From the NCBI GenBank assembly GCA_037446725.1, contig JBBIIC010000005.1, forward strand, positions 5,886 to 69,885: a stretch of 64,000 bases of DNA, read 5' to 3'. Source of the DNA: Actinomycetota bacterium. Its GTDB lineage: Bacteria; Actinomycetota; Coriobacteriia; Anaerosomatales; SLCP01. How positions within the stretch are numbered: position 1 is the stretch's first letter; each line of letters starts with the position of its first letter. This document shows, in pieces, positions 12,007 through 59,672 of this stretch. Under the pieces are notes generated by a model, which was not told the origin of the DNA, did no database searches, and was given only the letters and a program-made list of their open reading frames with translations. The position numbers and the translations under genes are program-made.

Positions 12007-12047
12007 CGTTGTGTCTACCTCCAGCCTCGGGCCGCGCGTCCTCTGAT

Positions 12048-13499: not shown

Positions 13500-13503
13500 G
13501 CCG

Positions 13504-15567: not shown

Positions 15568-15643
15568 TTCCGCCCTGCCTCACGGGCGCGCCCGGGGCAC
15601 TTGCAGGTCGAAGGCGCCCCGGAGGGGGCGCCCCTTCACTCGC

Positions 15644-16321: not shown

Positions 16322-16447
16322 ATACACCACTCCTTTGCCCGAGGGCGCCGCTCGGGGCCCACTCCCGCCTTCACCGGGCATGCTCGCACCGGTATCCGGA
16401 CGTGGGAGTACACCGCTCCGAACGTCTGCCTGCCTGAACAGCCATTA

Positions 16448-38203: not shown

Positions 38204-38209
38204 CGGTCC

Positions 38210-39574
38210 TCACCGCCTCGCCGGGGGCTCGTACTCGAAGAGATCGCCCGCCGTGTGGATGCCGAGGTCCTCGAGACGCTGGGTGAACGCCGGCCGGAGT
38301 CCCGTCGCCTTGAGCGTGCCCCTGAACCGTCCGTCCTCGTCCAGGCCCATCGAGTAGTCGTAGTAGAAGATGTCCTGCATGATGACCATGTCGCCTTCCA
38401 TCGCGCCGATCTCGGCGACCTGGATGACCTTGCGCGAGCCGTCCCGAAGCCTGCCCAGGTGCACGATCAGGTCGATCGCCGAGGAGACCTGCTCGCGGAT
38501 CGCTTTGACGGGCAGGTCGAGGCCGGACATGAGCACCATCGTCTCCAGCCGCGCGAGCGCGTCGCGCGGCGAGTTCGCATGGATGGTCGAGAGCGAGCCC
38601 TCATGCCCGGTGTTCATCGCCTGAAGCATGTCGAGGGCCTCGGCGCCTCGCACTTCGCCGACGATTATGCGGTCGGGCCGCATGCGCAGCGAGTTGCGGA
38701 CGAGGTCGCGGATGGTGACCTGCCCCTTGCCCTCGATGTTGGGCGGCCTTGATTCGAGCCGCAAGACGTGCTCCTGGCCGAGGCGCAGCTCCGCGGCGTC
38801 TTCGATCGTGATGATGCGCTCGTCGCCAGGGACGAAGAGCGACATCACGTTGAGAAGCGTAGTCTTGCCCGTACCCGTCCCGCCAGAGATGAGCACGTTG
38901 AGCTTGCCTCGCACGCACGCCTCGAGGAAGATCGCGACATTCGGCGTGAGCGTGCCGAAGTTGATGAGGTCGTCGACGGTGAAGGGGTCCTTCGAGAACT
39001 TGCGGATCGTGAGCATCGGGCCGTTGATGGCGAGCGGGTGAATGACCGCGTTCACGCGCGAGCCGTCGGGCAGGCGCGCGTCGACCATCGGGGATGCCTC
39101 GTCGATGCGGCGGCCGACCTGGGCGACGATCTTGTCGATGATGCGCGCCAGGTGCGCCTCGTCGATGAAGCGGCGGTCGGTCTCGAAGATGCGCCCTTTG
39201 CGCTCGACGTAGATCGTCGCCGGATTGTTGACCATCACCTCGGTGATCTCCGGGTCCTCCAGGTATGCCTGGATAGGCCCGTAGCCGAGGATGTTGTCGA
39301 GCACATCGAGCACAATCTCCCTGCGGTCCGCGGTCGAGAGCGGGGTCGTCTCGCGGTCGAGGAGCTCGTTGAGCTTGTCCTCGATCCTCAGCCGGAAGCC
39401 CGCGTCATCCGCGTCCGCCGTCCCCAGCTCGGTGCCCATCTCCTCGACGAGCAGCTGGTGCAGGTGGCGCTTGACGGCGTCCTTGGTGTTGTACGCGGCC
39501 ACCCTCGACGCGGCGATGTCCTCCGCGCCGACCCCGTGACCCGTCGACCCTATGCGATCTCTAAGCGACATCAC
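38210..39574 (-). CDS. cpaF: Tad pilus secretion ATPase CpaF/TadA
   Basis: 454 aa. Walker A GGTGTGKTT, plus Asp/His boxes typical of T2SS-E ATPases. The start is either ATG 39571 or GTG 39574, with AAGGAGG upstream. Confidence 0.93.
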   Translation of the reverse strand: MMSLRDRIGSTGHGVGAEDIAASRVAAYNTKDAVKRHLHQLLVEEMGTELGTADADDAGFRLRIEDKLNELLDRETTPLSTADRREIVLDVLDNILGYGPIQAYLEDPEITEVMVNNPATIYVERKGRIFETDRRFIDEAHLARIIDKIVAQVGRRIDEASPMVDARLPDGSRVNAVIHPLAINGPMLTIRKFSKDPFTVDDLINFGTLTPNVAIFLEACVRGKLNVLISGGTGTGKTTLLNVMSLFVPGDERIITIEDAAELRLGQEHVLRLESRPPNIEGKGQVTIRDLVRNSLRMRPDRIIVGEVRGAEALDMLQAMNTGHEGSLSTIHANSPRDALARLETMVLMSGLDLPVKAIREQVSSAIDLIVHLGRLRDGSRKVIQVAEIGAMEGDMVIMQDIFYYDYSMGLDEDGRFRGTLKATGLRPAFTQRLEDLGIHTAGDLFEYEPPARR

Positions 39575-40727
39575 TCTTCGCCTCCTTGCGTTGCGCGACG
39601 TGACGCGCGAGTTCGAGCAGGCTCTTGGCCACCGGCGACTTGGGCGCGTCGGTGACGACCGGCATCCCGCGGTTGACCGAGCGGGGAACGAGCCGGTCGC
39701 TCGGGATCTTCGCGACGATGTGACCCTCGACGGCGGCCGCCACCTCCGAGGGCTCGAGCAGAACCTTGCTGTCGGCGCGGTTGAGCACCAGGTTGACGCG
39801 GTTGCGGTCGTAGCCGAGCTGCCGCAACTTCTGCAACGAGATACGTGTGTTCTTCACGCTGGCGACATCCATCGTGGCGATCGCGAGTATGTCGTCGCTC
39901 TTGTCGATCGCTGTCAGCACCGTCTCGTCGAACGCGGCCGGCGTGTCGATGACGACGACGTCGGCGGCGTCTCGAGCGAGCGAGATGATGCGTCCGAGGC
40001 GCGACGCCGTGACCGCCTCGGCGTCCTCCGGCCGCACCGGCGCGAGCAGCACGTCGAGGCCGGACGGATGCCGCGTGAGGAAGCCGCGCAGCATCGAGGT
40101 GTCGAGACGGTCGAATGCCTGGACCGCATCGTAGATGGTCCGCTCGGGCTTGAGCTTGAGCATGATGCCCGTGTCGCCGAACTGCAAGTCGAGGTCGAGC
40201 AGGATCGTCCGTACCCCGAGTCCGGCGAGCGCGACGCCGAGGTTGCTCGCGATGATCGTCTTGCCCACGCCGCCCTTGGTGCTGAAGACCGTGACGACGT
40301 GGCCCCGCCCGTTGCCGTTGGCTGCCGAGCCGACCCCGACCCCAGCCGCCTCCCGCCGCCGCACGACGTCCGCCGACGCGTCGAGCACGGCCGATGCGAC
40401 CTCCCCGAACGTGCTCTCGGCGCCGACGACGTCGCTGAAGCTCGCCTTCATCGCCTGACGCAGGAGTTCCGTGGTGACCTTCGGCACGACGAGCACGGAG
40501 GAGACGGGCGGGACTCGCGACGCGAGCGCGGCCCCAGACTCGAGCGCGCCGTCGAGCGGCATCGACGGGCCGAAGACGATGACGTGCGCGTCGCTCTCCT
40601 CGACCTGCTCGGCGACGCGCCCGAGCGAAGGAGTCACTGCGACCTCGTTGCCGGGCTCGCGGCAGAGCACCTGCTCGAGCTTGGCGCCGAAGTCAGGATC
40701 GCGGTCTACGATGAGGATGGCGCCCAA
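39561..40727 (-). CDS. tadZ: TadZ/CpaE-like pilus localisation ATPase (receiver-like N-domain + MinD/ParA domain)
   Basis: 388 aa. Deviant Walker A STKGGVGKT. The N-terminal ~120 aa are receiver-like. Confidence 0.85.
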   Translation of the reverse strand: MGAILIVDRDPDFGAKLEQVLCREPGNEVAVTPSLGRVAEQVEESDAHVIVFGPSMPLDGALESGAALASRVPPVSSVLVVPKVTTELLRQAMKASFSDVVGAESTFGEVASAVLDASADVVRRREAAGVGVGSAANGNGRGHVVTVFSTKGGVGKTIIASNLGVALAGLGVRTILLDLDLQFGDTGIMLKLKPERTIYDAVQAFDRLDTSMLRGFLTRHPSGLDVLLAPVRPEDAEAVTASRLGRIISLARDAADVVVIDTPAAFDETVLTAIDKSDDILAIATMDVASVKNTRISLQKLRQLGYDRNRVNLVLNRADSKVLLEPSEVAAAVEGHIVAKIPSDRLVPRSVNRGMPVVTDAPKSPVAKSLLELARHVAQRKEAKSDVA

Positions 40728-40739
40728 AGCTGCCGCCCC

Positions 40740-41504
40740 CTATTCGGCGAGGACGGACCGGAGCGTCTGCCCGGTCGTGGCCGCGATCTCGGTCTCGGCA
40801 GAACCGAGCAGCGCGAGCCACACGCTACCCTTCTCCTCGGCGAAGACCAGCCGCTCGACATCGGCGGGCGAGAGCGCTAGCGTGATGGTCGAGGGCGCTT
40901 CTGCCTGTTGCTCCTCGGCGGCTCCACCACCGAGCCTTCCGTCGTCCTCTTCCTGGACCGGCGCGGGCTGCGCGCTCACCATCGCCCCGACCGCGAGCAC
41001 GCGCGCCTTCGGGATGAGCACCTGGGTGAGCGGCTCGCCCTCAGGGCCGGGGTCGAGCGTGACGACGGCCATCACGTGGTCGCCCGGTTTCACGAGCCCC
41101 GCGATACCCTTGACCGCCGTGTTCGGGATGGAGACGGCGACGTAGTCAGCGGGGATGCTGTACGCGAGCCCCGCCTCACTCGGGAACTGGAACCTCACCT
41201 GCGTGATCTGCTCACCGGCGCTCAAGTCCTCCGCGAGGACCTTCCCGGCGATGGTGGATGCCGAGGAAACCGCGCCTTCCGCCACATACCGGCGCGGGAT
41301 GGACTCGATGGCGAGCACCTCGGTCGCGATCAGCTCGTCAGCGAATGCGCCCCGCGCGATGGGCTCTTGCGCCACGAGCACCTCGACCGGCTCGTCCTGC
41401 TCGGCCACGCCCCGCTCTAATGAACTGAGGTACCGGCCGGTCAACACGGCGGCCAACACGCCGAGGAGCACGGCAGCGACGAGGATCACGATTCGCGATC
41501 GCAT
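40740..41504 (-). CDS. cpaB: Flp pilus assembly protein CpaB
   Basis: 254 aa. N-terminal TM anchor, SAF-like region (VEVLVAQEPIARG) and an RcpC-like C-terminus. Confidence 0.86.
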   Translation of the reverse strand: MRSRIVILVAAVLLGVLAAVLTGRYLSSLERGVAEQDEPVEVLVAQEPIARGAFADELIATEVLAIESIPRRYVAEGAVSSASTIAGKVLAEDLSAGEQITQVRFQFPSEAGLAYSIPADYVAVSIPNTAVKGIAGLVKPGDHVMAVVTLDPGPEGEPLTQVLIPKARVLAVGAMVSAQPAPVQEEDDGRLGGGAAEEQQAEAPSTITLALSPADVERLVFAEEKGSVWLALLGSAETEIAATTGQTLRSVLAE

Positions 41505-41528
41505 GGAGGTGTCCTTCCGGTAGGCTGC

Positions 41529-43073
41529 TTACTGCTCTGTCGCCGGCGTCACGAGCCGGTAGGTCTCAAGATACAGGCCGGAGTCGGGGGGCACGTCCTC
41601 GTAGATCTCGGAGGGCAGCACGTGCTCGACGAACCGTCCGGAGATGTCCGCGTCGCCCTGCTGCTGTTCGAGGTAGAACGCCGCGAACGAGACGACCCGA
41701 AGCCTGCTTCTGCCTTGGATCGGCTCGACACGCTCGGTGACCGGGACGTAGACAAGCCTCGATGACGTTCGCGGCATGCCCTGCGCGACCCAGGTGTTGA
41801 AATCCACTCCGGTACGCAGCCGGTCGCGGACGCCTTGACTCGTCGGGCCGGTCATGTTGCCCGGTTCGGTGTCGAGGATCTGACCGAGGTGAATCACGCC
41901 GTCATAGCCGTTCTGCAGGTCATCCCGGTAGGCTGCTCCACCACCGCCCTCGAAGGACACCGGACCGAAGTTGCCGACCTCCGCGTTCCCGTCGAGCTTC
42001 ATGTGGTAGACCTGGCCGAACTCGTAATCGAAGAAGCCGACGGTGATTGCGGTCGAGCCGGCCGATCCGGGCGTGAAGAAGCGATTGCCTAGTTCCAGCG
42101 AACGAATAGGGAATGTCGAGCGGACGGAGTAGACGATCGCCCCGTCGTCGAGGTCCGGCCGTCCTTGCGCGCGGTTGCCCACCCACAGGTCGACGCCGAA
42201 GCTCGTGAACCGCTCACCCGTGCCGGGCGCGGGCACCGTCACGGAGTAGTTGCCTGTTCCGGTACGCCTCGCCCCGTTCAGCTCAAGAGTCGTCTGCCCG
42301 GTCCCGACCACCGTGACGGTGACGCTGTCCGGATCGACCGAGCTCGGCGGGTTGTTGCGCACAACCTCAGGGCTCACGGTAACGGAGCGGAACGGGCTCG
42401 TGGCGGCGATCGCGTGGACGTTCGAGACTCCGCTGAACGTCTCTTTGAAGCCTTGCTCGTTGTACACGTCAAGGTTGACCGAGCGTCTGCCCCCGGCGGT
42501 CATCGCGGGCACCGGCAGGTTGCCGCCCCAGAGCCCGTCGGCACCCTTGGTCAACCACACCCCGCCTGAAGGCGCGCCGTCGAGCCATGCATACACCCGC
42601 GTGACGCGAAGAATCGGTAGCCCGATGGGAATCAACCCCCGCATCCCCGTCACATACGCGACACGCGCTTCCGCGGTGGCCTGGATCGTCGGGTCAGCGG
42701 CCCACATCCGGCCGAAGAAGAGCGGGGAGTCCTTTTCGACGGTCACCCGGACGAAGTTGCCCCCAACCTCCGTGAGGGGCGCGTCCTCGAGCATCAAGAG
42801 CCCATCGGCGGGGCGTTCCGCGTTGCGATCGGCGTAGTCTTCGGCGACCGCCAGCACTCCGGCCTCATCGGCCCCCTCGAGCAGCTCACTCACTCCCGCG
42901 AGAGCGGCCGCGTCCGCAGATGCTTGAAGCTGACGCTTGACGGTGTAGAGATATCCCATGTCGACCGCAAGCGCGGCAACACCGAGGAAGACGATCATCA
43001 GTATCGCGACCGTCACCGCAACGACGCCCTGTTCCTCGCGCAGTTTCGCTCTGTAGGTATCCATCTTGATCAC
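41529..43073 (-). CDS. TadG-like (TadE/G family) pseudopilin-type protein
   Basis: 514 aa. N-terminus EEQGVVAVTVAILMIVFLGVAALAVDMGYLY matches the Tad pilus TadE/G-like N-terminal pattern. Large uncharacterised C-terminal region. Confidence 0.75.
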   Translation of the reverse strand: MIKMDTYRAKLREEQGVVAVTVAILMIVFLGVAALAVDMGYLYTVKRQLQASADAAALAGVSELLEGADEAGVLAVAEDYADRNAERPADGLLMLEDAPLTEVGGNFVRVTVEKDSPLFFGRMWAADPTIQATAEARVAYVTGMRGLIPIGLPILRVTRVYAWLDGAPSGGVWLTKGADGLWGGNLPVPAMTAGGRRSVNLDVYNEQGFKETFSGVSNVHAIAATSPFRSVTVSPEVVRNNPPSSVDPDSVTVTVVGTGQTTLELNGARRTGTGNYSVTVPAPGTGERFTSFGVDLWVGNRAQGRPDLDDGAIVYSVRSTFPIRSLELGNRFFTPGSAGSTAITVGFFDYEFGQVYHMKLDGNAEVGNFGPVSFEGGGGAAYRDDLQNGYDGVIHLGQILDTEPGNMTGPTSQGVRDRLRTGVDFNTWVAQGMPRTSSRLVYVPVTERVEPIQGRSRLRVVSFAAFYLEQQQGDADISGRFVEHVLPSEIYEDVPPDSGLYLETYRLVTPATEQ

Positions 43074-43483
43074 TCGATTCTCTGAGTGGCAGCGCTGCGC
43101 AGAGTGAATGTCGTAGCGTTGCCGACTCCGAAGATGTTCTGCATCAGGGGCGCGAAGAGGGGGGTCGGGTACGTGACCCGCACCGTAGCCGGATCACCAG
43201 GATCTCTTCCGTCCGGCGTCAGCACGACAACTCTGCCCGGAACGCTCAGATCGAGGGAGGGAGCCGCCGCGTCGGCCTTCGCGATTGCCGCGGCGTTGGT
43301 GTGCCCGAGCGCCACCCACCTGACGCCCTCGCGCGCTGCGTGAGTGGTCTCCAACCACTGGAAGAACACGTAACCGAACTGGATGATTCCGAACAGAAGA
43401 AGCACGAGGACAAACGCAACGATGCCGAACTCGACGGCTGCCGCCCCTTCGTCTCTTCTATGTCGGTCAATCAGCCACATCAC
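43070..43483 (-). CDS. tadE: TadE-like minor pilin
   Basis: 137 aa. DEGAAAVEFGIVAFVLVLLLFGIIQFGY is a TadE-type N-terminus. Overlaps the tadG-like start by 4 nt. Confidence 0.8.
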   Translation of the reverse strand: MMWLIDRHRRDEGAAAVEFGIVAFVLVLLLFGIIQFGYVFFQWLETTHAAREGVRWVALGHTNAAAIAKADAAAPSLDLSVPGRVVVLTPDGRDPGDPATVRVTYPTPLFAPLMQNIFGVGNATTFTLRSAATQRIE

Positions 43484-46287: not shown

Positions 46288-46686
46288 CTACAGGGGAGGC
46301 TCAACGGCGCGGTAGGCGGCAAGCATCCGCCGGCTCGCTGCCTCGATCCGCCGGCGCACCCGCTCGCTGCGCCGCTCCCACAGGTCGATGCCGCGGTAGT
46401 GGGCGAGGTGGCCCAGGTGGCCGTGTCCGAGCGCGTCCTGCTCGCAGTGCAGCGCGCGTCCGAGCGCAACAGGATCGCGGTCGCGCAGCGCCTCGCCGAG
46501 AAGCCGGCACGCCCTGCGCCGGGCGCCGAGCCAGCCGAAGTGCCACCCTTTGTAGCGCCACCGGTCGCCCGGGAACTCCCGGTCGACCGCCACATTGGCG
46601 GATGCGACGGCCTCGGCCTCCGCGGGCGGCAGACCCTCCTCGAGCGCCCACTGCAACGTCAGCCGGTAGTGGACGTGCGCGTTCAC
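46288..46686 (-). CDS. Hypothetical protein (132 aa) with His-rich, zinc-phospholipase-C-like motifs
   Basis: This is the frame with very high GC3 among three overlapping minus-strand ORFs. Motifs are HVHY near the N-terminus, VAVD and LGRALHCEQDALGHGHLGH. No family confidently recognised. Confidence 0.6.
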   Translation of the reverse strand: MNAHVHYRLTLQWALEEGLPPAEAEAVASANVAVDREFPGDRWRYKGWHFGWLGARRRACRLLGEALRDRDPVALGRALHCEQDALGHGHLGHLAHYRGIDLWERRSERVRRRIEAASRRMLAAYRAVEPPL

Positions 46687-50950: not shown

Positions 50951-52144
50951 ATGACCATGTTCCACCTGGCCGACCCCGCCCTCGAGCCGATCGCCGCCAA
51001 GGTGCTCGCGGGCGAGCGGCTCTCGCGCGAGGACGGGATCGCCCTCTACGCCAGCCGAGACCTGCTCGGCATCGGGCAGTTGGCCGACTTCGCCCGGCGG
51101 CGCATCAACGGCGAGCGCGTCTACTTCATGGTCAACCGCCACATCAACCCCACCAACATCTGCCGCAACCGCTGCAAGTTCTGCGCGTTCGCGCGCTCGG
51201 AGGGCGAAGAGGGCGCCTACGAGATGACCCTCGACACGGTGGCCGAGGCCGCCGCCGAGGGTGCGGCCGACGGCGCGTACGAGATCCACATCGTCTCCGG
51301 CCTGCACCCGGAGTGGAGCTACGAGTTCTACCTCGACATGGTGCGCCGCACGCGCGAGGCCGTGCCCGATCACGTCATCGTGCAGGCCTTCACCGCAGTC
51401 GAGATCGAGCACATGGCGATTATCGCCGAGAAAACGACGCGCGAGGTGCTCGCCGACCTCAAGGAGGCCGGGCTCGACGCGCTGCCCGGCGGCGGCGCGG
51501 AGATATTCAGCGACCGCACGCGCATGGCGGCATGGGACAAGAAGACGAAGTCCGACGTGTGGCTGCGCGTCCACGGCGAGGCGCACGAGCTCGGCATCGC
51601 CACGAACTGCACGATGCTCTACGGCCACATCGAGACGCACGAGGAGCGGGTCGACCACCTCATCCGCCTGCGCGAGCAGCAGGACGCGACCGGCGGGTTC
51701 CTCGCGTTCATCCCACTCGCGTTCCACCCGGCCAACACCGAGCTCGCCGACCTGCCGGGTACGACCGGTTTCGACGACCTCAAGACGCTCGCTATCGCGC
51801 GTCTCATGCTCGACAACATCCCGCACGTCAAGGCTTTCTGGATTATGGTTGGCCTCAAGGTCGCGCAGCTCTCCACGTGCTTCGGAGTGGACGACATCGA
51901 TGGCACGGTGGTCGAGGAGCGCATCACGCACATGGCCGGCGCCACCACGCCCGAGGCGCTCTCGAAAGACGATCTCGTCGGGATGATCGCCGAGACCGGG
52001 CACGTCGCCGTCGAGCGCGACACCCTCTACCGGGTCGTGCGCGTCTATGACGCCGAGGCCGAGCTTCCCGCGTGGGACGCCGGGCCGATCGGCGCACCCC
52101 CGAAGGCGGGGGTGGCAAGCGGCACCGTGGCGACGGGCCGCTGA
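50951..52144 (+). CDS. mqnE: Radical SAM aminofutalosine synthase (MqnE-type; MqnE versus MqnC assignment tentative)
   Basis: Start moved to ATG 50951 (GAGAGGA upstream). 397 aa. VYFMVNRHINPTNICRNRCKFCAF radical-SAM motif. CofH/MqnC/MqnE family. Confidence 0.8.
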   Translation: MTMFHLADPALEPIAAKVLAGERLSREDGIALYASRDLLGIGQLADFARRRINGERVYFMVNRHINPTNICRNRCKFCAFARSEGEEGAYEMTLDTVAEAAAEGAADGAYEIHIVSGLHPEWSYEFYLDMVRRTREAVPDHVIVQAFTAVEIEHMAIIAEKTTREVLADLKEAGLDALPGGGAEIFSDRTRMAAWDKKTKSDVWLRVHGEAHELGIATNCTMLYGHIETHEERVDHLIRLREQQDATGGFLAFIPLAFHPANTELADLPGTTGFDDLKTLAIARLMLDNIPHVKAFWIMVGLKVAQLSTCFGVDDIDGTVVEERITHMAGATTPEALSKDDLVGMIAETGHVAVERDTLYRVVRVYDAEAELPAWDAGPIGAPPKAGVASGTVATGR

Positions 52145-52145
52145 G

Positions 52146-52982
52146 ATGGCGCGCCCCCGGCTCGGCCACATCCAGTTCATCAACTGCCTGCCGCTCTACT
52201 ACGGCATGGTGAAGAGCGACGTGCTGCTCGACGTCGACCTCGTCAAGGCTGCCCCGCGCGACCTCGCCCGCATGCTGCTCGACGGAGAGCTCGAGGTCGC
52301 TCCGATCCCGGCCATCGAGTACGCGCGTCACGCCGACGGGCTGGTGCTGCTGCCCGACATCGCGATCTCGAGCGACGGTGAGGTGCAGTCGATCCTGCTG
52401 CTCTCGAAGGTGCCCGCTGGCGAGCTCGGCGGCCGGACGGTCGCGCTCACCGACACCTCGCGCACCTCGCAAGTGCTCACCCGCGTGCTGCTCGCCCGGC
52501 ACTGGGGTGTGGCACCCGACTACGTCGAGATGCCGCCCGACCTGCCCGCGATGCTGCGCGACGCCGATGCCTCGCTGCTCATCGGCGACGAGGCGCTCCG
52601 CGCGTACTGGGAGCCGCCGGAGGGGCTGTACGCCTACGACCTCGGCGCCGAGTGGACCGCGTGGGCCGGCCTGCCGATGGTCTACGCGGTGTGGGCGGTC
52701 AGACGCCAGTTCGCCGAGGCGTCGCCCGGCGCGGTGCGGGCAGTGAACGACGCGCTCACCGGCTCGCTCGCCTACTGCCGCGCGCACCTCGACGACATCT
52801 CCGAGTACGCCGCACGCTGGGAGCCGTTCGGAGCGGACCGCTTCCGCAGCTACTTCGATGCGCTGCACTTCCGCTACGAGCCGCGCTACCGCGAGGGGCT
52901 CGCGCGCTTCCTCGCCGAGGCCGTCGGAGTCGGCGAGCTCGACCGCGTGCCCGAGATCGTGATCTTCGGGGAGGGAGCGTGA
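52146..52982 (+). CDS. mqnA: Chorismate dehydratase MqnA (futalosine pathway)
   Basis: Start at ATG 52146, 1 nt after the mqnE stop. 278 aa. N-terminus RLGHIQFINCLPLYYG and EVAPIPAIEY are typical of MqnA. Confidence 0.88.
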   Translation: MARPRLGHIQFINCLPLYYGMVKSDVLLDVDLVKAAPRDLARMLLDGELEVAPIPAIEYARHADGLVLLPDIAISSDGEVQSILLLSKVPAGELGGRTVALTDTSRTSQVLTRVLLARHWGVAPDYVEMPPDLPAMLRDADASLLIGDEALRAYWEPPEGLYAYDLGAEWTAWAGLPMVYAVWAVRRQFAEASPGAVRAVNDALTGSLAYCRAHLDDISEYAARWEPFGADRFRSYFDALHFRYEPRYREGLARFLAEAVGVGELDRVPEIVIFGEGA

Positions 52983-54115
52983 GCGGCGAGCCGGACCGCG
53001 CCGAGCTCGCGGCGCTCGCGTTCGCGGCGGCGACGGGCGAGACGCGGCTGTCCGCCACCGACGCGCTCGCGCTCCTCGAACACGCGCACGTGCTCGACCT
53101 GGGCGCGGCGGCCTCGGCGATGCGCGCGCGGCTCGTGCCCGGTGACGAGGCCACCTTCATCGTCGACCGCAACGTCAACTACACGAACGTCTGTGTCTCG
53201 GAGTGCCGCTTCTGCGCGTTCTTCGCGACCAGGGACGCCGACGCCGCCTACGTGCTCACGCGCGAGGAGCTCGCCGCCAAGGTGCGCGAGACCGTCGAGC
53301 TGGAGGGCACGGCGATCCTGCTGCAGGGCGGCATGCACCCCGATCTGGGCATCGAGTGGTACGAAGGGATGCTACGCGACATCAAGGCCGACAACCCGGG
53401 TATCCACGTGCACGGGTTCGGGCCGCCGGAGATCGTGCACATCGCGAAGCTCTCGGGTGTCACCACACGCGAGGTCCTGATGCGGCTGCGCGACGCCGGA
53501 CTGGACTCGCTTCCCGGCGGCGGCGCGGAGATACTCGTCGACCGGGTGCGCTCGCACGTCTCGCCTCGCAAGGCGACCTCCGACCAGTGGCTGGACGTCA
53601 TGCGCGAGGCGCACGCGCTCGACATCTCGACGACCGCGACCATGATGTTCGGCGGCCTGGAGACCCTCGAGGAGCGCGTCGAGCACCTCGTGCACATCCG
53701 GGAGGTCCAGGACGACGCGATCGCCGGCGGGCACGTGGGGTTCCGCGCCTTCATCCCCTGGAGCTTCCAGCCCGGCAACACCGCCCTTGCTGAGGACGAG
53801 TCCGCAGCGCGCGGCGAGCCGCTTTCCGCCGCAAGCGGCTACGAGTACCTGCGCACGCTCGCGGTCTCGCGGCTCTTCCTTGACAGCGTGCGCAACATCC
53901 AAACCTCGTGGGTGACGCAGGGCTCGAAGATCGGCCAGGTCGCGCTCGCGTTCGGCGCGAACGACATGGGCTCGACGATGATCGAGGAGAACGTCGTCGC
54001 GGCCGCCGGCACGCGCTTCATGCTCGCGCGCGACGAGCTCGTGCGGCTTATCGCCGACGCGGGCTACGTGCCCGTACAGCGCGATACGCTCTACCGGGCC
54101 TTGCGCGCATTCTGA
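52979..54115 (+). CDS. mqnC: Radical SAM cyclic dehypoxanthinyl futalosine synthase (MqnC-type; assignment tentative)
   Basis: GTG 52979 forms a GTGA overlap with the mqnA stop. 378 aa. FIVDRNVNYTNVCVSECRFCAF motif. Confidence 0.8.
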   Translation: MSGEPDRAELAALAFAAATGETRLSATDALALLEHAHVLDLGAAASAMRARLVPGDEATFIVDRNVNYTNVCVSECRFCAFFATRDADAAYVLTREELAAKVRETVELEGTAILLQGGMHPDLGIEWYEGMLRDIKADNPGIHVHGFGPPEIVHIAKLSGVTTREVLMRLRDAGLDSLPGGGAEILVDRVRSHVSPRKATSDQWLDVMREAHALDISTTATMMFGGLETLEERVEHLVHIREVQDDAIAGGHVGFRAFIPWSFQPGNTALAEDESAARGEPLSAASGYEYLRTLAVSRLFLDSVRNIQTSWVTQGSKIGQVALAFGANDMGSTMIEENVVAAAGTRFMLARDELVRLIADAGYVPVQRDTLYRALRAF

Positions 54116-54158: not shown

Positions 54159-54187
54159 TTCACAAACTCACGAACGGCCGCTATACT
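54159..54187 (+). promoter_or_regulatory. Near-consensus sigma70-type promoter TTCACA-N17-TATACT upstream of the arsR-family gene
   Basis: ttcaca(54159..54164)-17 nt-tatact(54182..54187), inside the lowest-GC stretch of the region. Confidence 0.5.
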
Positions 54188-54202
54188 CGGCTCGTGAAAA
54201 GA

Positions 54203-54226
54203 TTCGCATGTTCGCATGTTCGCACA
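54203..54226 (+). repeat. Three tandem 8-mers TTCGCATG TTCGCATG TTCGCACA (candidate operator)
   Basis: Read directly from the sequence. They start about 9 nt after the predicted transcription start, 25 nt before GTG 54251. Confidence 0.6.
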
Positions 54227-54250
54227 ATTGCCGATAAGTAGCAGCTGAGA

Positions 54251-54622
54251 GTGAAAGGCGACATGGACTTCCACTGTCTGCACTCGGAGATCTGCCGGAC
54301 GCTCGCGAACGAGAAGCGCCAGCGCATCTTGAGCGCCCTCAGAGATGGTGAGCTCTCGGTCACTCGCATCGCCGAGGAGACCGGCATCGCGCAAGCGACC
54401 GTCTCCCAGCACCTCGCTCTGCTGCGCTCGAAAGGACTCGTCAACACCCGCCGCGACGGAACGCACGTCCACTACTCCGTTGCCAACCCCAAGATCATCC
54501 AAGCGTTCGACCTCATCACAGAGGTGATGCGGGAGACGCTCGCGGCACAGCAGGAGAACATCGATGGACTGAGCGAGCACCCACCGAGCGCCAAGACGCA
54601 CACTGGACAGACCGGCACCTAG
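54251..54622 (+). CDS. ArsR/SmtB-family winged-helix transcriptional regulator
   Basis: LANEKRQRILSALRDGELSVTRIAEETGIAQATVSQHLALLRSKGLV is a classic ArsR HTH. There is no CVC metal site in helix 3. Two N-terminal Cys residues sit in HCLHSEIC. The start is GTG 54251 or ATG 54263. Confidence 0.85.
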   Translation: MKGDMDFHCLHSEICRTLANEKRQRILSALRDGELSVTRIAEETGIAQATVSQHLALLRSKGLVNTRRDGTHVHYSVANPKIIQAFDLITEVMRETLAAQQENIDGLSEHPPSAKTHTGQTGT

Positions 54623-54665
54623 AAGCCGAGACACGGCCCCGATACGACCGAGGAGGTCACCCACC

Positions 54666-55169
54666 GTGAGTGAGACGATCGACGTAAGCCAGGACGACAA
54701 GCCCAAGAAACTCGCAATGGTAGTCATGAGCGGCGACATGGACAAGCTCTTCGGCGCGTTCATCATCGCTACAGGCGCCGCTGCGATGGGGATGCGGGTG
54801 ACGATGTTTTTCACCTTCTGGGGACTGCGCGCCATCAAGAAGAACGTGCGTACCGGCAAGACGCTCTTTGGCCGGATGCTCGGCGCCATGTACGGCGGTG
54901 ACATCACCAAGTCGAATCCGAGCAAGTTCAGTTTCGGGGGCATGGGCCGATGGATGTTCGGCAAGATGATGGGAGCACACAACGTCGCCAAGCTCGTCGA
55001 GCTCCGCGATCTCGCCGTCGACCTCGGCGTGGACCTCTACGGGTGCCAGATGTCGATGGACGTGATGGAGATACCGGCCGACGCGTTCATCGACGGGGTC
55101 AAGGACCCGGTAGGCGTCGGGTTCTTCCTCGCCGAAGCGCAAGAAGCCGACATACAGCTATTCATCTAG
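54666..55169 (+). CDS. DsrE/DsrF/DsrH-like family sulfur-relay protein
   Basis: GTG 54666 has GAGGAGG 9 nt upstream. 167 aa. KLAMVVMSGDMDKLFGAFIIATGAAAMGMRVTMFFTFWGL and the conserved Cys context LYGCQMSMDVM. Confidence 0.85.
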   Translation: MSETIDVSQDDKPKKLAMVVMSGDMDKLFGAFIIATGAAAMGMRVTMFFTFWGLRAIKKNVRTGKTLFGRMLGAMYGGDITKSNPSKFSFGGMGRWMFGKMMGAHNVAKLVELRDLAVDLGVDLYGCQMSMDVMEIPADAFIDGVKDPVGVGFFLAEAQEADIQLFI

Positions 55170-55239
55170 GGACGACTACGGCCCCCCTTCCTACGTGGAC
55201 CCGCCGCGCGCCTGACGCGGCTGACGAAAGGAGATGCTC

Positions 55240-55482
55240 GTGTCCGAGGACATCAAGGTCGACCTGGATCTCGATCTGAAAGGCCTGCTCTGCCCGATGC
55301 CGATGGTCAAGGTCAGTCAGCGGATCGGCGACGTGCCGGTCGGCGGAGTCATCCGCGCGGTCGCTACCGACCCGGGAGCGATGGCCGACATCCCCGCGTG
55401 GGCCAAGAGCACCGGCAACGAGGTCCTCTCCGCCGGCAAAGAGGGCGGCGAGTACGTCTTCCTGGTCAAGCGGGTCAAGTAG
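55240..55482 (+). CDS. tusA: TusA/SirA-family sulfur carrier protein
   Basis: GTG 55240 lies 6 nt after AAAGGAG; the ATG 55234 in the track abuts the SD. 80 aa. Active-site motif GLLCPMPMVK. Confidence 0.88.
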   Translation: MSEDIKVDLDLDLKGLLCPMPMVKVSQRIGDVPVGGVIRAVATDPGAMADIPAWAKSTGNEVLSAGKEGGEYVFLVKRVK

Positions 55483-55512
55483 CCGGCCCTCGCCGACGAA
55501 GAAGGGCTGACG

Positions 55513-56232
55513 ATGGAGACCTATCTGTACCTCACTTCAGTGATCGGGGTGTATATCGGCATCGGCGTGTTCGTCGGAGGGATGGCGTGGCGCATCTATC
55601 AGTGGTCGACCACGCCCAAGTCGGCGGTCAAGTTGGGCCTGTTCCCCAAGCCCGCGACGGCAACCGGCCGCGGCGTCAAGATGCTCAAGGACACCTTCCT
55701 CGCGCCCCACTCGGCGCGCATCGAGCCGTTGATGTGGGTCTTCGCGTTCGCGTTCCACGTTGCGGCGCTGGCGGCGTTCGTAGGCCACGGCCGACTCGTC
55801 ATCGAGTACACGCCGCTCGTGCAGCTGCTCGGATCCGACGGCATGAAGACGTTCGCCGCATGGTCGGGCGGTACCGCAGGCATCGTGATGATGGTCGCCG
55901 TGCTGTTCTGGATCGCGCGCCGGACGTACGGACCGTTCAAGCAACTCTCGGTACCCGAGGACTACTTCCTGCTCTTCTTGCTCCTCGGCATCATCGTGAT
56001 GGGTAACCACATGCGATTCCTCGGCCACGTGTCCGCCGAGACGTACCGCGAGTGGTTCCAGAGTCTCCTCGTGTTCCGTCCGGTCATCCCCGCCGAGATA
56101 TCCCGCTCCAACGTGGGGTGGTCGCTCGGGACGCACATGCTCTTCGTCAACGTGCTCTTCGTCTACTTCCCGTTCAGCAAGCTCGTCCACACGATCGGCG
56201 CGTTCTCGGCCAACCTGGTGAGGAGTGAGTAG
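55513..56232 (+). CDS. NarI/DsrM/HdrE-like di-heme cytochrome b membrane subunit
   Basis: 239 aa, about 5 TM. His pairs show NarI spacing: FHVAALAAFVGH (i, i+10) and THMLFVNVLFVYFPFSKLVH (i, i+18). Confidence 0.8.
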   Translation: METYLYLTSVIGVYIGIGVFVGGMAWRIYQWSTTPKSAVKLGLFPKPATATGRGVKMLKDTFLAPHSARIEPLMWVFAFAFHVAALAAFVGHGRLVIEYTPLVQLLGSDGMKTFAAWSGGTAGIVMMVAVLFWIARRTYGPFKQLSVPEDYFLLFLLLGIIVMGNHMRFLGHVSAETYREWFQSLLVFRPVIPAEISRSNVGWSLGTHMLFVNVLFVYFPFSKLVHTIGAFSANLVRSE

Positions 56233-56233
56233 C

Positions 56234-57529
56234 GTGGAGACGCAGGCAATCAACACCCTCACCGGCGTGCTCGACAAGAAGATGACGCGTCAGCTCAAGC
56301 AGTACCTCGACATCTGCGCGCGCTGCGCCATCTGCAAGGACGCATGTCACCAGTACGTCGCGACCGGGGACTTCACGTATCTCCCCGCCCGCCGCGCCGA
56401 GCTCATCCGGCAGATCTACAAGAAGTACTTCACCAAGACCGGCGAGTTCGTGCCCGCCCTCTACGAGGCGCGTGACCCCGACGAGAATCTGCTCGACGAG
56501 TTGTACGCATCGACCTACGCGTGCACCGGATGCCGCCGGTGCATGTACTACTGCCCCTTCTCAATCGACACCGCATGGATCCTGTCTGCGGCCAAGGCGA
56601 TGCTCATCGCCGCGGGCAAGGGCAACGAGATGCTCGGCCAGCTCGCCGACGCGGCGCTCATGAAGAGCGAGCACTTCGAGATGTTCAAGGACGTGATCAT
56701 CGACGGCTTCAAGGACGTCGAGGGCAAGCTCCAGGCGATGACGCGCGACCCGTCGGCCGAGATACCCGTCGACAAGGGTGGTGCCGACGTACTGTACGTC
56801 GCGCTCGCCGGTGCGCACTCGATCCTGCCCGCCGCGGCCATCTTCCACGAGGCCGGCACGAACTGGACGCTCTCGATGTTCGAGTCGGCCAACTACGGTT
56901 ACTTCTTCGGCGATGCGGAGAAGGCGCGCCGGATCGCCGACCGATTCATGGATGAAGCGAAGCGTCTCGGCGTGAAAGAGGTCGTGATCACCGAGTGCGG
57001 GCACGCCTACCGCGTGGCGCAGTTCTTCCACGAAGCCTGGAGCGGTGAGAAGCACCCCTTCAAGGTACGCCACATCCTTGAGGTCATCGACGAGTACATC
57101 AGAGACGGCCGCATCACCGTGCGCCCCGGCGTGATCACCGAGCCGATCACCTACCACGACCCCTGTCAGGTGGGGCGCAACGGCGGGATCTTCGAACAGC
57201 CGCGCGACATCGTGCGTGCGGTGGCGTCCGACTTCCGGGACATGACTCCCAACCGTGAGGAACAGTGGTGCTGCGGCGGAGGCGGCGGGCTTGTCGCGAT
57301 CGCCGAGATGGAGGAGTTCCGCCTCAAGAGCGGCGCGAAGAAGCTCGAGCAGATCAAAGCCACCGGGGCACGCATCATCGCAAGCCCGTGCGAGAACTGC
57401 CGCCTGCAGATGGAAGGGCTCAACGACCAGCTCGACCTGGGCCTCACCGTCAAGCCCGTCATGGACCTCGTGCTGGACGCGATGGGCCTCCCCGGGTGGC
57501 CTGTCGCCAAGGAGGTCGACCATGACTGA
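56234..57529 (+). CDS. DsrK/HdrD-like iron-sulfur subunit (2x [4Fe-4S] ferredoxin motifs + CCG domains)
   Basis: GTG 56234 lies 8 nt after GAGGAG; GTG 56225 is an alternative. CARCAICKDACH and CTGCRRCMYYCP motifs. C-terminal DPCQVGR ... WCCGGGGG ... PCENC (CCG domain). Confidence 0.83.
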   Translation: METQAINTLTGVLDKKMTRQLKQYLDICARCAICKDACHQYVATGDFTYLPARRAELIRQIYKKYFTKTGEFVPALYEARDPDENLLDELYASTYACTGCRRCMYYCPFSIDTAWILSAAKAMLIAAGKGNEMLGQLADAALMKSEHFEMFKDVIIDGFKDVEGKLQAMTRDPSAEIPVDKGGADVLYVALAGAHSILPAAAIFHEAGTNWTLSMFESANYGYFFGDAEKARRIADRFMDEAKRLGVKEVVITECGHAYRVAQFFHEAWSGEKHPFKVRHILEVIDEYIRDGRITVRPGVITEPITYHDPCQVGRNGGIFEQPRDIVRAVASDFRDMTPNREEQWCCGGGGGLVAIAEMEEFRLKSGAKKLEQIKATGARIIASPCENCRLQMEGLNDQLDLGLTVKPVMDLVLDAMGLPGWPVAKEVDHD

Positions 57530-58364
57530 TCAGCGCATCCCGCGTGCGGAGTTCGGCATATGCGGAGGCAGCGGCACGCTCTCCATCGGCACGGCCGGGT
57601 CGCTCGCCGACGAGCGGGTGACGGTACTCACCGATGGCCTCGTCTTCGACACCCCGTTCGGCCGCTCCCCCGCGTTCACCCACATCCGCGTGGACGGCCC
57701 CCACGGACCGCGCGAGGCGCTCAGCGTACGGATGCACGGCTGGAGGCGCGGCGTGAAGCGCGCGGATGCGAGCCTGCAGGTCTTCTGGGTCTTCCACGAG
57801 GCGGGCGTGCGCAAGGTCGTCGCTGACGGCGGGGTGGGCAGCCTCAATCACCTCCTCGACCCCCGCGACGTGGTGATCCCGAGCGACTTCATCGACCTCA
57901 CCATGAAGCAGGACATCTACGTGCGCGGCGACCACCTGCTCATCATGCGCCAGCCGATCTGTCCCGACCTCGCGGCTCACCTGCACGCGGCTGCGAGCGT
58001 TCCGTTCGCGCGCGTCTACCGGCGCGGCACCTATCTCGTCACCGACGGTCCGCGCTTCGAGAGTGTGGCCGAGGTCGACTACATGAAGCGGCTCGGCGGG
58101 GACGTCATCGGCCAGTCGCTCTCGCCCGAAGTCTTCCTCGCCCGCGACATCGGTGCATGCTTCGCGGGCATCTACATCGTCGTGAACTACGGCGAAGGCG
58201 TCGTCCGGGAGTGGGAACACTCCGAGCTCAAGGCGGTCTTCTTCGAGGAGTCGGAGACCATCGCCCGCTGCGTGATCGACACCGTGAGCGCGGCCGACCT
58301 CGACGCCGGCTGCGACTGCATGGACCTGCGCAAGCCGAGCCTCCTCGACCTGCCGGAGGCGTAG
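57522..58364 (+). CDS. MTAP-family purine nucleoside phosphorylase (methylthioadenosine/methylthioinosine phosphorylase-like)
   Basis: ATG 57522 (AAGGAGG upstream) overlaps the preceding stop (ATGACTGA). 280 aa. FGICGGSGT...TPFG..., VTDGPRFES and VIGQSLSPEV segments are typical of MTAP-type PNPs. Confidence 0.83.
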   Translation: MTDQRIPRAEFGICGGSGTLSIGTAGSLADERVTVLTDGLVFDTPFGRSPAFTHIRVDGPHGPREALSVRMHGWRRGVKRADASLQVFWVFHEAGVRKVVADGGVGSLNHLLDPRDVVIPSDFIDLTMKQDIYVRGDHLLIMRQPICPDLAAHLHAAASVPFARVYRRGTYLVTDGPRFESVAEVDYMKRLGGDVIGQSLSPEVFLARDIGACFAGIYIVVNYGEGVVREWEHSELKAVFFEESETIARCVIDTVSAADLDAGCDCMDLRKPSLLDLPEA

Positions 58365-58367: not shown

Positions 58368-59672
58368 GTGCTCGTCCACGCCGAGTGGGTGCTGCCGATC
58401 GCAGGCCCGCCCCTGCGCGACGGCGCCGTCCTCGTGCGGGGCGACCGCGTCGCCGAGGTGGGCTCGCTCGACGCGCTCGCAGCCGCGCACCCGGAAGAAC
58501 CCGTCGAGCGCCACGACGGCTGCGTGCTGCTCCCTGGCCTGGTCAACGCGCACACGCACCTCGCGCTCACCGTGCTCGGCGGGCTCGTGCCTTCGGTGTC
58601 GTTCGGCGAGTGGCTGCATCGGTTGGTGCGCGCGATGCGTGTGCTCACGCCCGATGATCTCGAGGCGTCGGTCGCGCTCGGCGCGAGGCGGTGCCTCGAG
58701 GCGGGCGTGACGGTGATAGGCGAGATCGCGTACGGCGCGGCCTCGATGGACATCGCGCGTCGCGCCGGCCTGGGCGGCACCTTCTTCTGGGAGGTGCTGG
58801 GCATCGGTGCGGCCGACCTCGAGAGCGCGCTCCGCGACGACGGCTACCCGCAAAGCGCCCGGGGCGATCGGGACGCACGCGTGCGTGCCGGGATCTCGCC
58901 GCACTCCCCCTACACCTCGGGACCGGCGCTGCTGCGCGCCGCGCACGACCGGGCACGACGGGAGGACGCGCCGTTCGCCATCCACGTCGCCGAGTCCCAC
59001 GCGGAGGCCGAGCTCTTCGAGAGCGGCGGCGGAGCGCTCGCCCCGACCGCGGGACGTCTCGCGACAGGTCTCACACCGGGCTCGGGCGCCACGCCCGTTT
59101 CCTACCTCGACGACCTCGGCGTGCTCGACGGCGCTATCGCGGTCCACTGCGTGCAGCTAGGCGGGGACGACATCGCGCGGCTCGCGGAGCGTTCGACCGG
59201 GGTCGTGCTCTGCCCGCGCTCCAACGCCTACCTTCTCGAGGGACCCGCGCCCGTCGCGGCGCTCGAAGCGTCCGGGACCCGTCTTGCGCTCGGAACCGAC
59301 TCGTCGGCGAGCAACCTCGATCTTGACCTGCTCGACGAGGCGCGCGCCGTGCGCGTGATCGCGCCGCATCTGGCGGCGGAACGCGTCGTCCGGATGATCA
59401 CCGCCGATGGGGCGCGAGTGCTCGGCCTCGGCGAGGCGTTCGGCGTGCTGGCGCCCGGCTACCAGGCCGACCTGGCCGTGTTCCGGTGCGCCGCCGCCGA
59501 AGCCGACCCGTACGAGGCGCTCGTGGGCTGTGCGGGCAGGCCCTCCCTCGAGCGCGTGCTCTCGGCCGGCGAGTGGCGGGTGCGTGACGGGCGCGCGCTG
59601 GCGCCGCCCGATGCAGGACTCGATGACGTGCTGGCCCACGCCCGTGAACGCGCGCGGACCGCGCTCGGCTGA
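58368..59672 (+). CDS. Amidohydrolase-superfamily nucleoside deaminase (MTA/SAH/5'-deoxyadenosine or aminofutalosine deaminase-like)
   Basis: GTG 58368 lies 3 nt after the upstream stop, with GGAGG upstream. 434 aa. LLPGLVNAHTHLAL (HxH metal motif), IHVAES and LGTDS motifs. Confidence 0.83.
   Translation: MLVHAEWVLPIAGPPLRDGAVLVRGDRVAEVGSLDALAAAHPEEPVERHDGCVLLPGLVNAHTHLALTVLGGLVPSVSFGEWLHRLVRAMRVLTPDDLEASVALGARRCLEAGVTVIGEIAYGAASMDIARRAGLGGTFFWEVLGIGAADLESALRDDGYPQSARGDRDARVRAGISPHSPYTSGPALLRAAHDRARREDAPFAIHVAESHAEAELFESGGGALAPTAGRLATGLTPGSGATPVSYLDDLGVLDGAIAVHCVQLGGDDIARLAERSTGVVLCPRSNAYLLEGPAPVAALEASGTRLALGTDSSASNLDLDLLDEARAVRVIAPHLAAERVVRMITADGARVLGLGEAFGVLAPGYQADLAVFRCAAAEADPYEALVGCAGRPSLERVLSAGEWRVRDGRALAPPDAGLDDVLAHARERARTALG

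Follow-up and report, generated by a model that had tools for sequence, protein, structure and literature searches.

A DsrMK-like gene cassette linked to TusA and DsrE2 as a candidate menaquinone-coupled oxidoreductase for carrier-bound sulfane sulfur

So far, DsrMK-type complexes have been explained only in terms of their partnership with DsrC and DsrAB, and DsrMKJOP is reported to be a menaquinol-dependent reductase of the DsrC trisulfide (Barbosa et al. 2024, as cited in PMC13293266; Santos et al. 2015, as cited in PMC6378623). TusA and DsrE2 are known as a genetic pair in sulfur trafficking, and the function of DsrE2 has been called unclear (PMC11094781). In a 64-kb stretch of DNA from an Actinomycetota bacterium (contig JBBIIC010000005.1; referred to here, at its full length of 64,000 nucleotides, as the window), we examined a cassette of five genes encoding an ArsR-type regulator, a DsrE2-like protein, a TusA protein and a DsrM-like/DsrK-like pair. 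All of these parts belong to known families; together they define a distinct, widespread and apparently uncharacterized branch of the DsrMK family with a dedicated and presumably different substrate pair. The first-pass annotation of this DNA had remarked that the five-gene combination was not known to it as a described system, and no published description of a module joining TusA and DsrE2 to a DsrMK-like pair was found in the literature, subscription-only reviews not being covered.

The cassette resembles DsrMK and DsrMKJOP in combining a NarI-type di-heme b protein with a cytoplasmic subunit that carries two [4Fe-4S] motifs and one CCG domain and, presumably, in performing a two-electron redox reaction at a protein-bound S-S(-S) bond. 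HdrDE/HmeCD, HmcEF and TmcBC are alike in that a b-type cytochrome is paired with an HdrD-like iron-sulfur (FeS)/CCG subunit, but the cassette has no cytochrome c or periplasmic subunits and, unlike for HdrDE/HmeCD, its substrate is presumed to be a protein carrier and not CoM-S-S-CoB.

Inspection of the open reading frames (ORFs) of the window located the five genes on the + strand, tightly packed within positions 54251 to 57529. In 5′ to 3′ order, they encode an ArsR/SmtB-family winged-helix repressor of 119 aa (54263 to 54622; HTH_5, 1.9e-14), a DsrE2-type (PF13686) soluble sulfur carrier of 167 aa (54666 to 55169; DrsE_2, 1.6e-43), a TusA-family sulfur carrier of 82 aa (55234 to 55482; PF01206, 6.2e-20), a NarI/DsrM-type integral membrane protein of 239 aa (55513 to 56232; PF02665 [Nitrate_red_gam], 1.3e-17) and a DsrK/HdrD-type cytoplasmic FeS subunit of 434 aa (56225 to 57529; CCG, 2.5e-16, plus Fer4_8). 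The Pfam searches that the first-pass annotation had proposed for the carriers and the redox pair thus returned DrsE_2, TusA, Nitrate_red_gam and CCG/Fer4_8. The intergenic spacings are 43, 64 and 30 nt, followed by an 8-nt overlap of the DsrM-like and DsrK-like genes, and a terminator scan detected no terminator-like site on the + strand within the five-gene cluster. The ATG at 54263 is conserved in relatives as the start of the ArsR gene; the mechanical ORF begins with a GTG at 54251. A GAGGAGG ribosome-binding site lies 10 nt 5′ of the DsrE2-like start. Upstream of the cluster, a sigma-70-type promoter (TTCACA, 17-nt spacer, TATACT; 54159 to 54187, + strand) matches the consensus at 10 of 12 positions, and two matches of this quality were present in the region versus 0.6 expected by chance. 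This promoter could be aligned with the promoters of relatives, including that of locus L004 (92% identity). The description of five codirectional genes with short gaps or overlaps behind one promoter was hence borne out.

The distribution of the cassette was examined in a set of 80 loci obtained with a subfamily alignment as the query against GTDB, each species being represented by one genome. Gene content was counted in the 70 loci with at least 1.75 kb of unmasked upstream DNA, whose ORFs were searched with the five window proteins. TusA lay beside the DsrK-like gene in 70/70 loci, the DsrM-like gene was likewise present in 70/70 (fragmented in L035) and a DsrE2-like gene was present in 69/70, being absent only in L056, from Bacillota. 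An ArsR gene was found in 44 of the 70 loci, upstream of the cassette in Actinomycetota, Chloroflexota and Elusimicrobia and downstream in Thermofilaceae. The hosts span about eight phyla, with Actinomycetota, Chloroflexota, Elusimicrobia, Bacillota, Spirochaetota, Desulfobacterota and Thermofilaceae archaea among them. The adjacency of DsrE and TusA, whose loss in relatives would have counted against the first-pass reading, is therefore widely conserved. Identity of the DsrK-like protein to that of the window was 69 to 95% in Actinomycetota, ∼60% in Chloroflexota/Dehalococcoidia, 59% in Elusimicrobia, 56% in Desulfobacterales, 53 to 54% in metagenome-assembled genomes (MAGs) labeled Chitinophagales or Betaproteobacteria, 53% in Bacillota, 48% in Thermofilaceae archaea, 47 to 48% in Thermodesulfobacteriota and 45 to 50% in Spirochaetota/Leptospirales. 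The best matches came from MAGs of Coriobacteriia and Anaerosomatales (OPB41), at 70 to 92% identity, and the GTDB representative SLCP01000046, “Coriobacteriia bacterium CSSed162cmB_508,” was 95% identical. A look-up for a protein identical to that of the window gave no entry. Matches from the Desulfobacterota and Spirochaetota branches were almost exclusively MAGs, and sediment and subsurface metagenomes are rich in members of the family, with at least ∼3,000 matches per query among 8,000 candidates scored.

The usual gene order was DsrE2-TusA-DsrM-DsrK, with a variant order of DsrE2-DsrM-TusA-DsrK in some Thermodesulfobacteriota (L086, L064, L067 and L075); L086 (4029 to 9203) additionally carries a tandem second DsrM-DsrK pair. 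The genes flanking the cassette varied, being chemotaxis genes in L001 to L003 (82% identity), unrelated genes in L005 (73% identity) and menaquinone (mqn) genes in the window and the 92%-identity L004. Such differences between loci indicated that the cassette is an autonomous unit. Clustering of flanking ORFs detected no further conserved neighbor family beyond the synteny of close relatives, and some 45 neighbors from 10 diverse loci were, by eye, unrelated housekeeping genes.

The family of the FeS subunit was assessed by comparison with NCBIfam models. Canonical DsrK was the top-scoring model for the window protein (292.1 bits), followed by TmcB (239 bits) and HmcF (215 bits), but the protein did not reach the 400-bit cutoff of the DsrK equivalog (NF045796) and fell well short of the 735 and 750 bits required for TmcB and HmcF. 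The GlpC models gave 54 and 28 bits and GlcF 22 bits, versus 292 bits for DsrK, and a GlpC-, LutA- or GlcF-type identity was rejected in view of these scores. Two ferredoxin-type CX2CX2CX3C motifs are formed by C31/34/37/41 and C100/103/106/110, and the CCG-domain cysteines are C314, C349-C350 and C389/C392. All eight ferredoxin cysteines, C258 and the CCG cysteines were retained in 97 to 100% of 79 sequences, in agreement with the earlier description of an FeS protein with two such motifs and a CCG domain. Pfam detected a single CCG domain, whereas the HdrB unit of Hdr enzymes has two; the CCG domain of the window protein is the predicted site of a noncubane [4Fe-4S] catalytic cluster. A hydropathy scan showed a hydrophobic stretch at residues 189 to 207, which we take to be buried in the protein core and not a transmembrane (TM) helix.

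HMMER was run exhaustively against 1.84 billion cluster representatives and yielded 171 homologues at an E value of ≤1e-30, and a neighbor-joining tree was built from 109 full-length sequences with 200 bootstraps. All cassette-linked DsrK-like proteins, together with P0121, P0122 and P0124, formed one clade in 197/200 bootstraps; these three proteins scored 269, 259 and 235 bits with the DsrK model, all below 400. The sister group contained the proteins that passed the DsrK cutoff (P0127, 451 bits; P0138, 413 bits; P0160, 418 bits; P0145, 622 bits), and a third branch was HmcF/TmcB-like. The FeS subunit is thus neither GlpC/LutA-like by its scores nor placed within canonical DsrK in the tree, the two assignments that the first-pass annotation had named as contradicting its reading. 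Residues Q315 and N319, near C314, and E390 and N391, between C389 and C392, are fixed in the cassette clade and differ in canonical DsrK. The position of these clade-specific residues beside the CCG cysteines is the appearance expected of an altered substrate pocket.

The DsrM-like protein scored 64.7 bits with PF02665 (cutoff, 22.9 bits), 35.8 bits with the NarI model and 96.6 bits with the DsrM equivalog NF038037, whose cutoff of 300 bits was not reached. At 239 aa, it is also shorter than the DsrM model length of 320. The hydropathy scan detected four strong TM segments and a weaker fifth at approximately residues 205 to 226, and a K/R-rich loop at residues 26 to 72 is predicted to be cytoplasmic; on this reading, the N terminus would lie outside and the side that docks the DsrK-like subunit would be cytoplasmic. 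H82/H92 (i/i+10, TM2) and H208/H226 (i/i+18, TM5) were present in 77/77 sequences. Invariance of these four histidines upheld the claim of a five-TM protein with both NarI-type bis-His pairs, for which their loss had been named as a refutation, and the protein is predicted to be a di-heme b, quinone-interacting subunit. Fused DsrM-DsrK proteins of 641 to 661 aa were encoded in L053 (7383 to 9308) and L054 (7386 to 9311) and represented by P0124; such natural fusions provide Rosetta-stone evidence for a complex of the two subunits and would be convenient single-gene constructs for biochemistry. The taxon labels of L053 and L054 (Chitinophagales and Betaproteobacteria) are those of MAG bins from a single project and may be unreliable.

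Both putative carriers retain their active-site cysteines. The DsrE2-like protein scored 148.8 bits with PF13686 and 83.2 bits with the DsrE2 equivalog NF047629, below the cutoff of 210 bits, and its best matches in the PDB were 3PNX and 2QS7, the latter being an archaeal DsrE2B homotrimer (PMC11094781). The cysteine of its LYGCQMSMD motif, already pointed out in the first-pass annotation, is C127 and was present in 71/71 sequences. The TusA protein scored 71.3 bits with PF01206 (cutoff, 28.6 bits) and 43 bits with the equivalog model of Escherichia coli TusA, whose cutoff of 78 bits it did not reach. Its C20-P-M-P active site had also been recognized earlier, and C20, P21 and P23 were conserved in 76/76 sequences. 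Each of the two proteins has one invariant cysteine, and no TM segment was detected in either by the hydropathy scan. The DsrE2-like protein of the cassette is soluble and DsrE2B-like (3PNX, 2QS7), in contrast to the membrane-bound DsrE2A type. As in the Rhd-TusA-DsrE2 relay of sulfur oxidizers and the TusA/DsrE sets associated with sHdr, TusA and a DsrE2-family protein are encoded together (PMC11094781) and keep their active-site cysteines. The cassette differs from these sets in having no linked gene for a rhodanese, sHdr, LbpA, DsrEFH or DsrAB and in that the partner of the carriers is a quinone-linked DsrMK-like pair.

A further difference from DsrMK and DsrMKJOP, besides the lower model scores and the separate clade, is the gene content around the cassette: dsrJOP, dsrC and dsrAB were not found near it in the window or in the fetched loci, and TusA, DsrE2 and, in the window, a dedicated ArsR gene are found instead. 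No DsrC- or TusE-like ORF was detected among all window ORFs or within ∼8 kb at 87 loci, a soft negative, obtained with two approximate seed sequences that match each other at ∼1e-23. Pfam annotation of 0.1 to 18.1 kb and 26.7 to 59.7 kb of the window revealed no Dsr genes, dsrAB included. These results agree with the first-pass statement that no DsrAB or DsrC partner was in view. Desulfobacterota are among the hosts of the cassette, one of them being an Olavius symbiont that carries P0122 and has a clade protein annotated as DsrK, and no linkage to other dsr genes was seen in the Desulfobacterota loci that were fetched. Spirochaetota/Leptospirales, Elusimicrobia and OPB41 Coriobacteriia are not known to possess the Dsr pathway. 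The universal synteny, the separate clade and the occurrence in hosts not known for Dsr together argue that TusA and DsrE2 would take the place of DsrC, and the TusA/DsrE relay that had been put forward earlier gains support on these grounds of synteny and phylogeny.

The regulator passed the ArsR/SmtB subfamily model NF033788 (87 bits; cutoff, 55 bits) but fell below every equivalog cutoff, including that of BigR (52 bits versus 155 bits). Its nearest solved structures were those of HlyU (4K2E), NolR, SqrR (6O8K) and BigR (3PQJ). SqrR, BigR and HlyU are thiol- or persulfide-sensing repressors. The window protein shares with the SqrR/BigR/HlyU/sHdrR-SoxR class the ArsR/SmtB fold, the absence of a CVC metal site, two conserved cysteines, a sulfur-handling operon as presumed target and a putative operator that overlaps the promoter. 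The two N-terminal cysteines that had been noted are Cys5 and Cys11, both in helix alpha-1. Cys11 was invariant in 47/47 cassette-linked ArsR proteins, and a second cysteine was present in 46/47, at position 5 in 36 proteins (Actinomycetota, Elusimicrobia) and at position 82, in the alpha-5 region, in 10 (Chloroflexota, Thermofilaceae). The cysteine pair of BigR and SqrR (alpha-2 and alpha-5) was not present in the window protein, which has a serine at the alpha-2 position when aligned to SqrR (6O8K). The proposed analogy to BigR and SqrR therefore did not hold for the cysteine positions, in whose place the cassette regulators have a conserved pair of their own (C11 with C5 or C82). An invariant cysteine with a relocating partner is as expected of a dithiol switch, and the window protein is probably a thiol- or persulfide-responsive regulator of the operon.

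A repeat search located an operator-like element, ATTCGCATGTTCGCATGTTCGCAC (54202 to 54225, + strand), with three TTCGCA(T/C) units just 3′ of the −10 box and with the direct repeat TTCGCATG present twice inside it. A related element with the consensus ACATTCGCATATTCG(C/A)ATGT occurred 3′ of the −10 box at many ArsR-bearing loci, including L040 of Dehalococcoidia; in L036, it took the form of a perfect 7-6-7 inverted repeat, ACATTCG-N6-CGAATGT, and ATTCGCA was found in 20 of 46 upstream regions. The operator-like element is conserved across phyla. The ATTCGCAT repeats are a putative ArsR operator, and the location of the element directly after the −10 box fits an autoregulated repressor that would block the start of transcription.

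With a confidence slightly above even, we favor the view that the product of the operon is a self-contained menaquinol:(TusA/DsrE2-bound sulfane sulfur) oxidoreductase that does not depend on DsrC, would operate reductively and would be induced by reactive sulfur. The identity of the module, without regard to direction, is much better supported than the direction. In the proposed mechanism, the DsrM-like subunit, with its NarI fold and four conserved histidines, would exchange electrons with the menaquinone pool. These would pass through the two [4Fe-4S] clusters of the DsrK-like subunit, whose ligand cysteines are conserved, to the CCG catalytic cluster, the chemistry of these clusters being proposed from homology with HdrB and DsrK. 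A sulfur-sulfur bond on the single-cysteine carriers would then be reduced at the CCG cluster, with H2S and two carrier thiols as products. Two substrates are conceivable, a persulfide on TusA and a TusA-S(n)-DsrE2 bridge mimicking the DsrC trisulfide; as each carrier has one invariant cysteine, such a bridge would be a two-protein analogue of that trisulfide. The strict synteny and the separate phylogenetic clade point to this step. Finally, ArsR would leave its operator when its cysteine pair is modified by sulfane sulfur or oxidants, and the module would then be made.

Reduction is favored because the characterized sister enzyme is a menaquinol-dependent trisulfide reductase, because derepression by reactive sulfur suits a consumer of sulfane sulfur and because the hosts, judged from MAG sources and the nature of these lineages, appear to be anaerobic and cannot use oxygen-dependent persulfide dioxygenases (PDO). 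The window itself encodes MqnA, MqnC and MqnE. A specific reductive role, as an oxygen-independent menaquinol:carrier-persulfide reductase that removes or respires intracellular sulfane sulfur in anaerobes, has roughly even chances of being correct.

Several points weigh against this view. By standard potentials, the reduction of persulfide or polysulfide by menaquinol is uphill, and the reverse reaction, thiol or sulfide oxidation, is downhill. Sulfate reducers of Desulfobacterota carry DsrC, so that cross-talk with the cassette is possible in these hosts. ArsR was not represented in 26/70 loci, some of which had genes of other regulator types upstream (MarR-like in L064 and L082 and TetR-like in L056, by eye, and AraC-type in L087), and the missing DsrE2 gene in L056 suggested that DsrE2 may not be strictly essential. 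Two cultured Anaerosomatales yielded no detectable respiratory quinones (PMC9686372), and models of oxidative Dsr metabolism run DsrMK(J) in the oxidizing direction (PMC13293266). The presence of MqnA, MqnC and MqnE in the window alongside the lack of detected quinones in the isolates could reflect low or condition-dependent levels, or a lineage that differs from the isolates.

Two of these points bear directly on the same module run oxidatively, in which the DsrK-like subunit would oxidize a thiol/sulfide pair and pass the electrons to menaquinone, either as TusA-SH + HS− → TusA-SSH or as TusA-SSH + DsrE2-SH → bridged trisulfide. In that case, the cassette would act like a protein-based sulfide:quinone oxidoreductase, loading carriers with sulfane sulfur for biosynthesis or harvesting electrons from sulfide. 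Standard potentials make this reaction favorable with menaquinone, and the conserved residues and synteny accommodate it equally. We regard this direction as rather unlikely but as a serious rival, since DsrMK(J) forms the DsrC trisulfide while reducing quinone in the oxidative Dsr models (PMC13293266). In two Dehalococcoidales loci (L045 and L046), moreover, a second, paralogous TusA-DsrE_2 pair is found ∼7 kb downstream of the cassette, and in L046 (13784 to 17224) it lies beside genes for PF01837 HcyBio (sulfide-dependent homocysteine biosynthesis) and Thi4. These are, however, separate paralogous pairs seen in L045 and L046 only. ArsR-type thiol/persulfide sensors normally derepress at high levels of sulfane sulfur, which would better suit a consumer, strict anaerobes would have to dispose of the menaquinol formed, and no sulfane-oxidizing enzyme (DsrAB, sHdr or PDO) was linked to the cassette in any locus. 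As an observation in its own right, the second pair in L045 and L046 hints at participation of TusA/DsrE2 pairs in biosynthetic sulfur incorporation in anaerobes.

It is improbable that the cassette is instead a divergent DsrMK whose substrate is DsrC, or a DsrC-like protein, encoded elsewhere, with TusA and DsrE2 only feeding sulfur to DsrC. Such an arrangement would account for DsrK being the top NCBIfam model (292 bits), for the occurrence of the cassette in Desulfobacterota and for the public annotation of clade members as “DsrK (=HmeD)” and “[DsrC]-trisulfide reductase subunit K.” Other members are entered as “Fe-S oxidoreductase.” The divergent-DsrMK reading has a parallel in Desulfurella amilsii, in which DsrE-like genes lie beside dsrMK, together with dsrC, dsrL and dsrAB (PMC6378623). 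The score below the DsrK cutoff, the separate clade (197/200) and the absence of a DsrC-like ORF and of dsrAB in the scopes given above speak against it, as do the lack of linkage to other dsr genes in the fetched Desulfobacterota loci and the several host lineages that are not known for Dsr. The description of the Anaerosomatales isolates, furthermore, makes no mention of dsr or TusA genes (PMC9686372). Slightly less probable still is that the module handles TusA-S-SO3− derived from tetrathionate or thiosulfate, or reduces a low-molecular-weight disulfide with TusA and DsrE2 as mere accessories. In its favor, thiosulfonate groups are found on both TusA and DsrE3A of Metallosphaera cuprina (PMC4175335), and thiosulfate respiration is described for a cultured relative, Anaerosoma tenue (PMC9686372). 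Small heterodisulfides are substrates of HdrD-type enzymes. Against it, the archaeal thiosulfonate carrier is DsrE3A and not the DsrE2 type of the cassette (PMC11094781), the loci suggest no small-molecule disulfide pathway and the two protein carriers are inherited together so strictly that they are better seen as the substrate.

Returning to the quinone-linked TusA/DsrE2 module, we tentatively propose, at somewhat less than even confidence, that it is a previously unrecognized and widespread menaquinone-coupled reductase (or oxidase) of anaerobic bacteria and archaea, respiratory or detoxifying in function, that acts on sulfane sulfur which TusA and DsrE2 hold between them. If this proposal is correct, the existence of a sister clade hard-wired to TusA and DsrE2 would mean that a quinone-to-protein-sulfur module predates sulfite reduction or evolved in parallel to it. 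TusA and DsrE2 would then jointly do the work of DsrC, as two proteins and with no need for DsrAB, and DsrE2 would gain its first defined role, with the cassette giving it a concrete and testable partner. Strict anaerobes without oxygen-dependent persulfide dioxygenases would have a route for handling reactive sulfane sulfur, and the cytoplasmic, quinone-linked turnover of S0 or persulfide would be distinct from that by the Psr/Sre molybdoenzymes, the NAD(P)H-dependent persulfide reductases and the oxygen-dependent PDO. As clade members are annotated as DsrK, metagenomic surveys that count matches to DsrK or DsrM would overcall sulfite and sulfate reduction, which could affect Coriobacteriia, Dehalococcoidia, Spirochaetota and Elusimicrobia.

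The surroundings of the cassette were then considered. On its 5′ side, mqn genes (50951 to 54115) encode MqnE (TIGR03700, 506 bits), MqnA (PF02621) and MqnC (TIGR03699, 468 bits). On its 3′ side are a PNP/MTAP-family phosphorylase gene (57522 to 58364, + strand), whose start overlaps the end of the DsrK-like gene, stop codon included, by 8 nt, and a gene for an aminofutalosine-deaminase-like amidohydrolase (58368 to 59672, + strand). The mqn genes on one side and the phosphorylase and amidohydrolase genes on the other indicated that the cassette interrupts a futalosine-pathway cluster. The phosphorylase inside this mqnE-mqnA-mqnC cluster may stand in for the nucleosidase MqnB. In L004, the phosphorylase gene and the cassette have a Germane/Gmad2 gene on the opposite strand between them. 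This context is lineage specific, being shared by the window and L004 and not by L001, L005 or other phyla.

A cluster for heme biosynthesis and system-I cytochrome c maturation was identified by Pfam at positions 126 to 16381 (− strand). It encodes HemA, HemB, HemC, a CobA/HemD fusion, an SDR protein, a SirC-like precorrin-2 dehydrogenase and CcmA, CcmB, CcmC, CcmE and CcmF, together with two radical-SAM proteins taken as AhbC/AhbD-like, and suggests siroheme-dependent heme synthesis with system-I maturation in a Coriobacteriia genome. The first-pass annotation had placed the cassette in the context of both the mqn genes and this heme cluster. Both are real, but the mqn flanks are lineage specific and the heme cluster, 38 kb off, gave no indication of being linked; a functional link of the cassette to either as a general property was rejected because the context is not conserved.

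Between 26.7 and 48.7 kb, the window has genes for the biosynthesis of NAD, pantothenate and folate, for a Tad pilus, for FtsH and for a two-component system. The G+C content across the window, 63 to 73%, is in line with an assignment to Coriobacteriia and Anaerosomatales. The Tad/Flp-type pilus cluster (35349 to 43483, − strand; Pfam) comprises genes for two T2SSF proteins (one with VWA), a T2SSE ATPase, a ParA/CpaE-like ATPase, RcpC/CpaB and TadE/TadG-like pseudopilins, in agreement with the pili-like appendages of Anaerosomatales isolates (PMC9686372). Among these cultured Anaerosomatales, respiration of S0 and thiosulfate is described for Anaerosoma, and Fe(III) respiration only for Parvivirga (PMC9686372). 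Parvivirga hydrogeniphila is unable to reduce sulfur compounds. Two further stretches, 46288 to 46686 and 16525 to 18077 (both − strand), had a coding-like codon bias and no Pfam match at E values of 1e-6 and 1e-8, respectively.

Two observations were made on genes that adjoin the cassette in other hosts. A gene for a FadL/Toluene_X-family outer-membrane channel lies next to it in five diderm loci from Spirochaetota and Desulfobacterota (L063, 4072 to 5310; L065, 2435 to 3685; L082, 9280 to 10671; L085, 2580 to 3872; and L087, 7335 to 8519). Channels of the FadL family carry hydrophobic molecules, and a link to uptake of S8 or organic polysulfanes is speculative. Directly 3′ of the cassette in one Coriobacteriia MAG (L032, 3541 to 7164), a 1,207-aa protein is encoded that combines FAD_binding_4, FAD-oxidase_C, Fer4_17 and two CCG domains and has the appearance of a D-lactate or glycolate oxidase to which an HdrD-like module has been joined.

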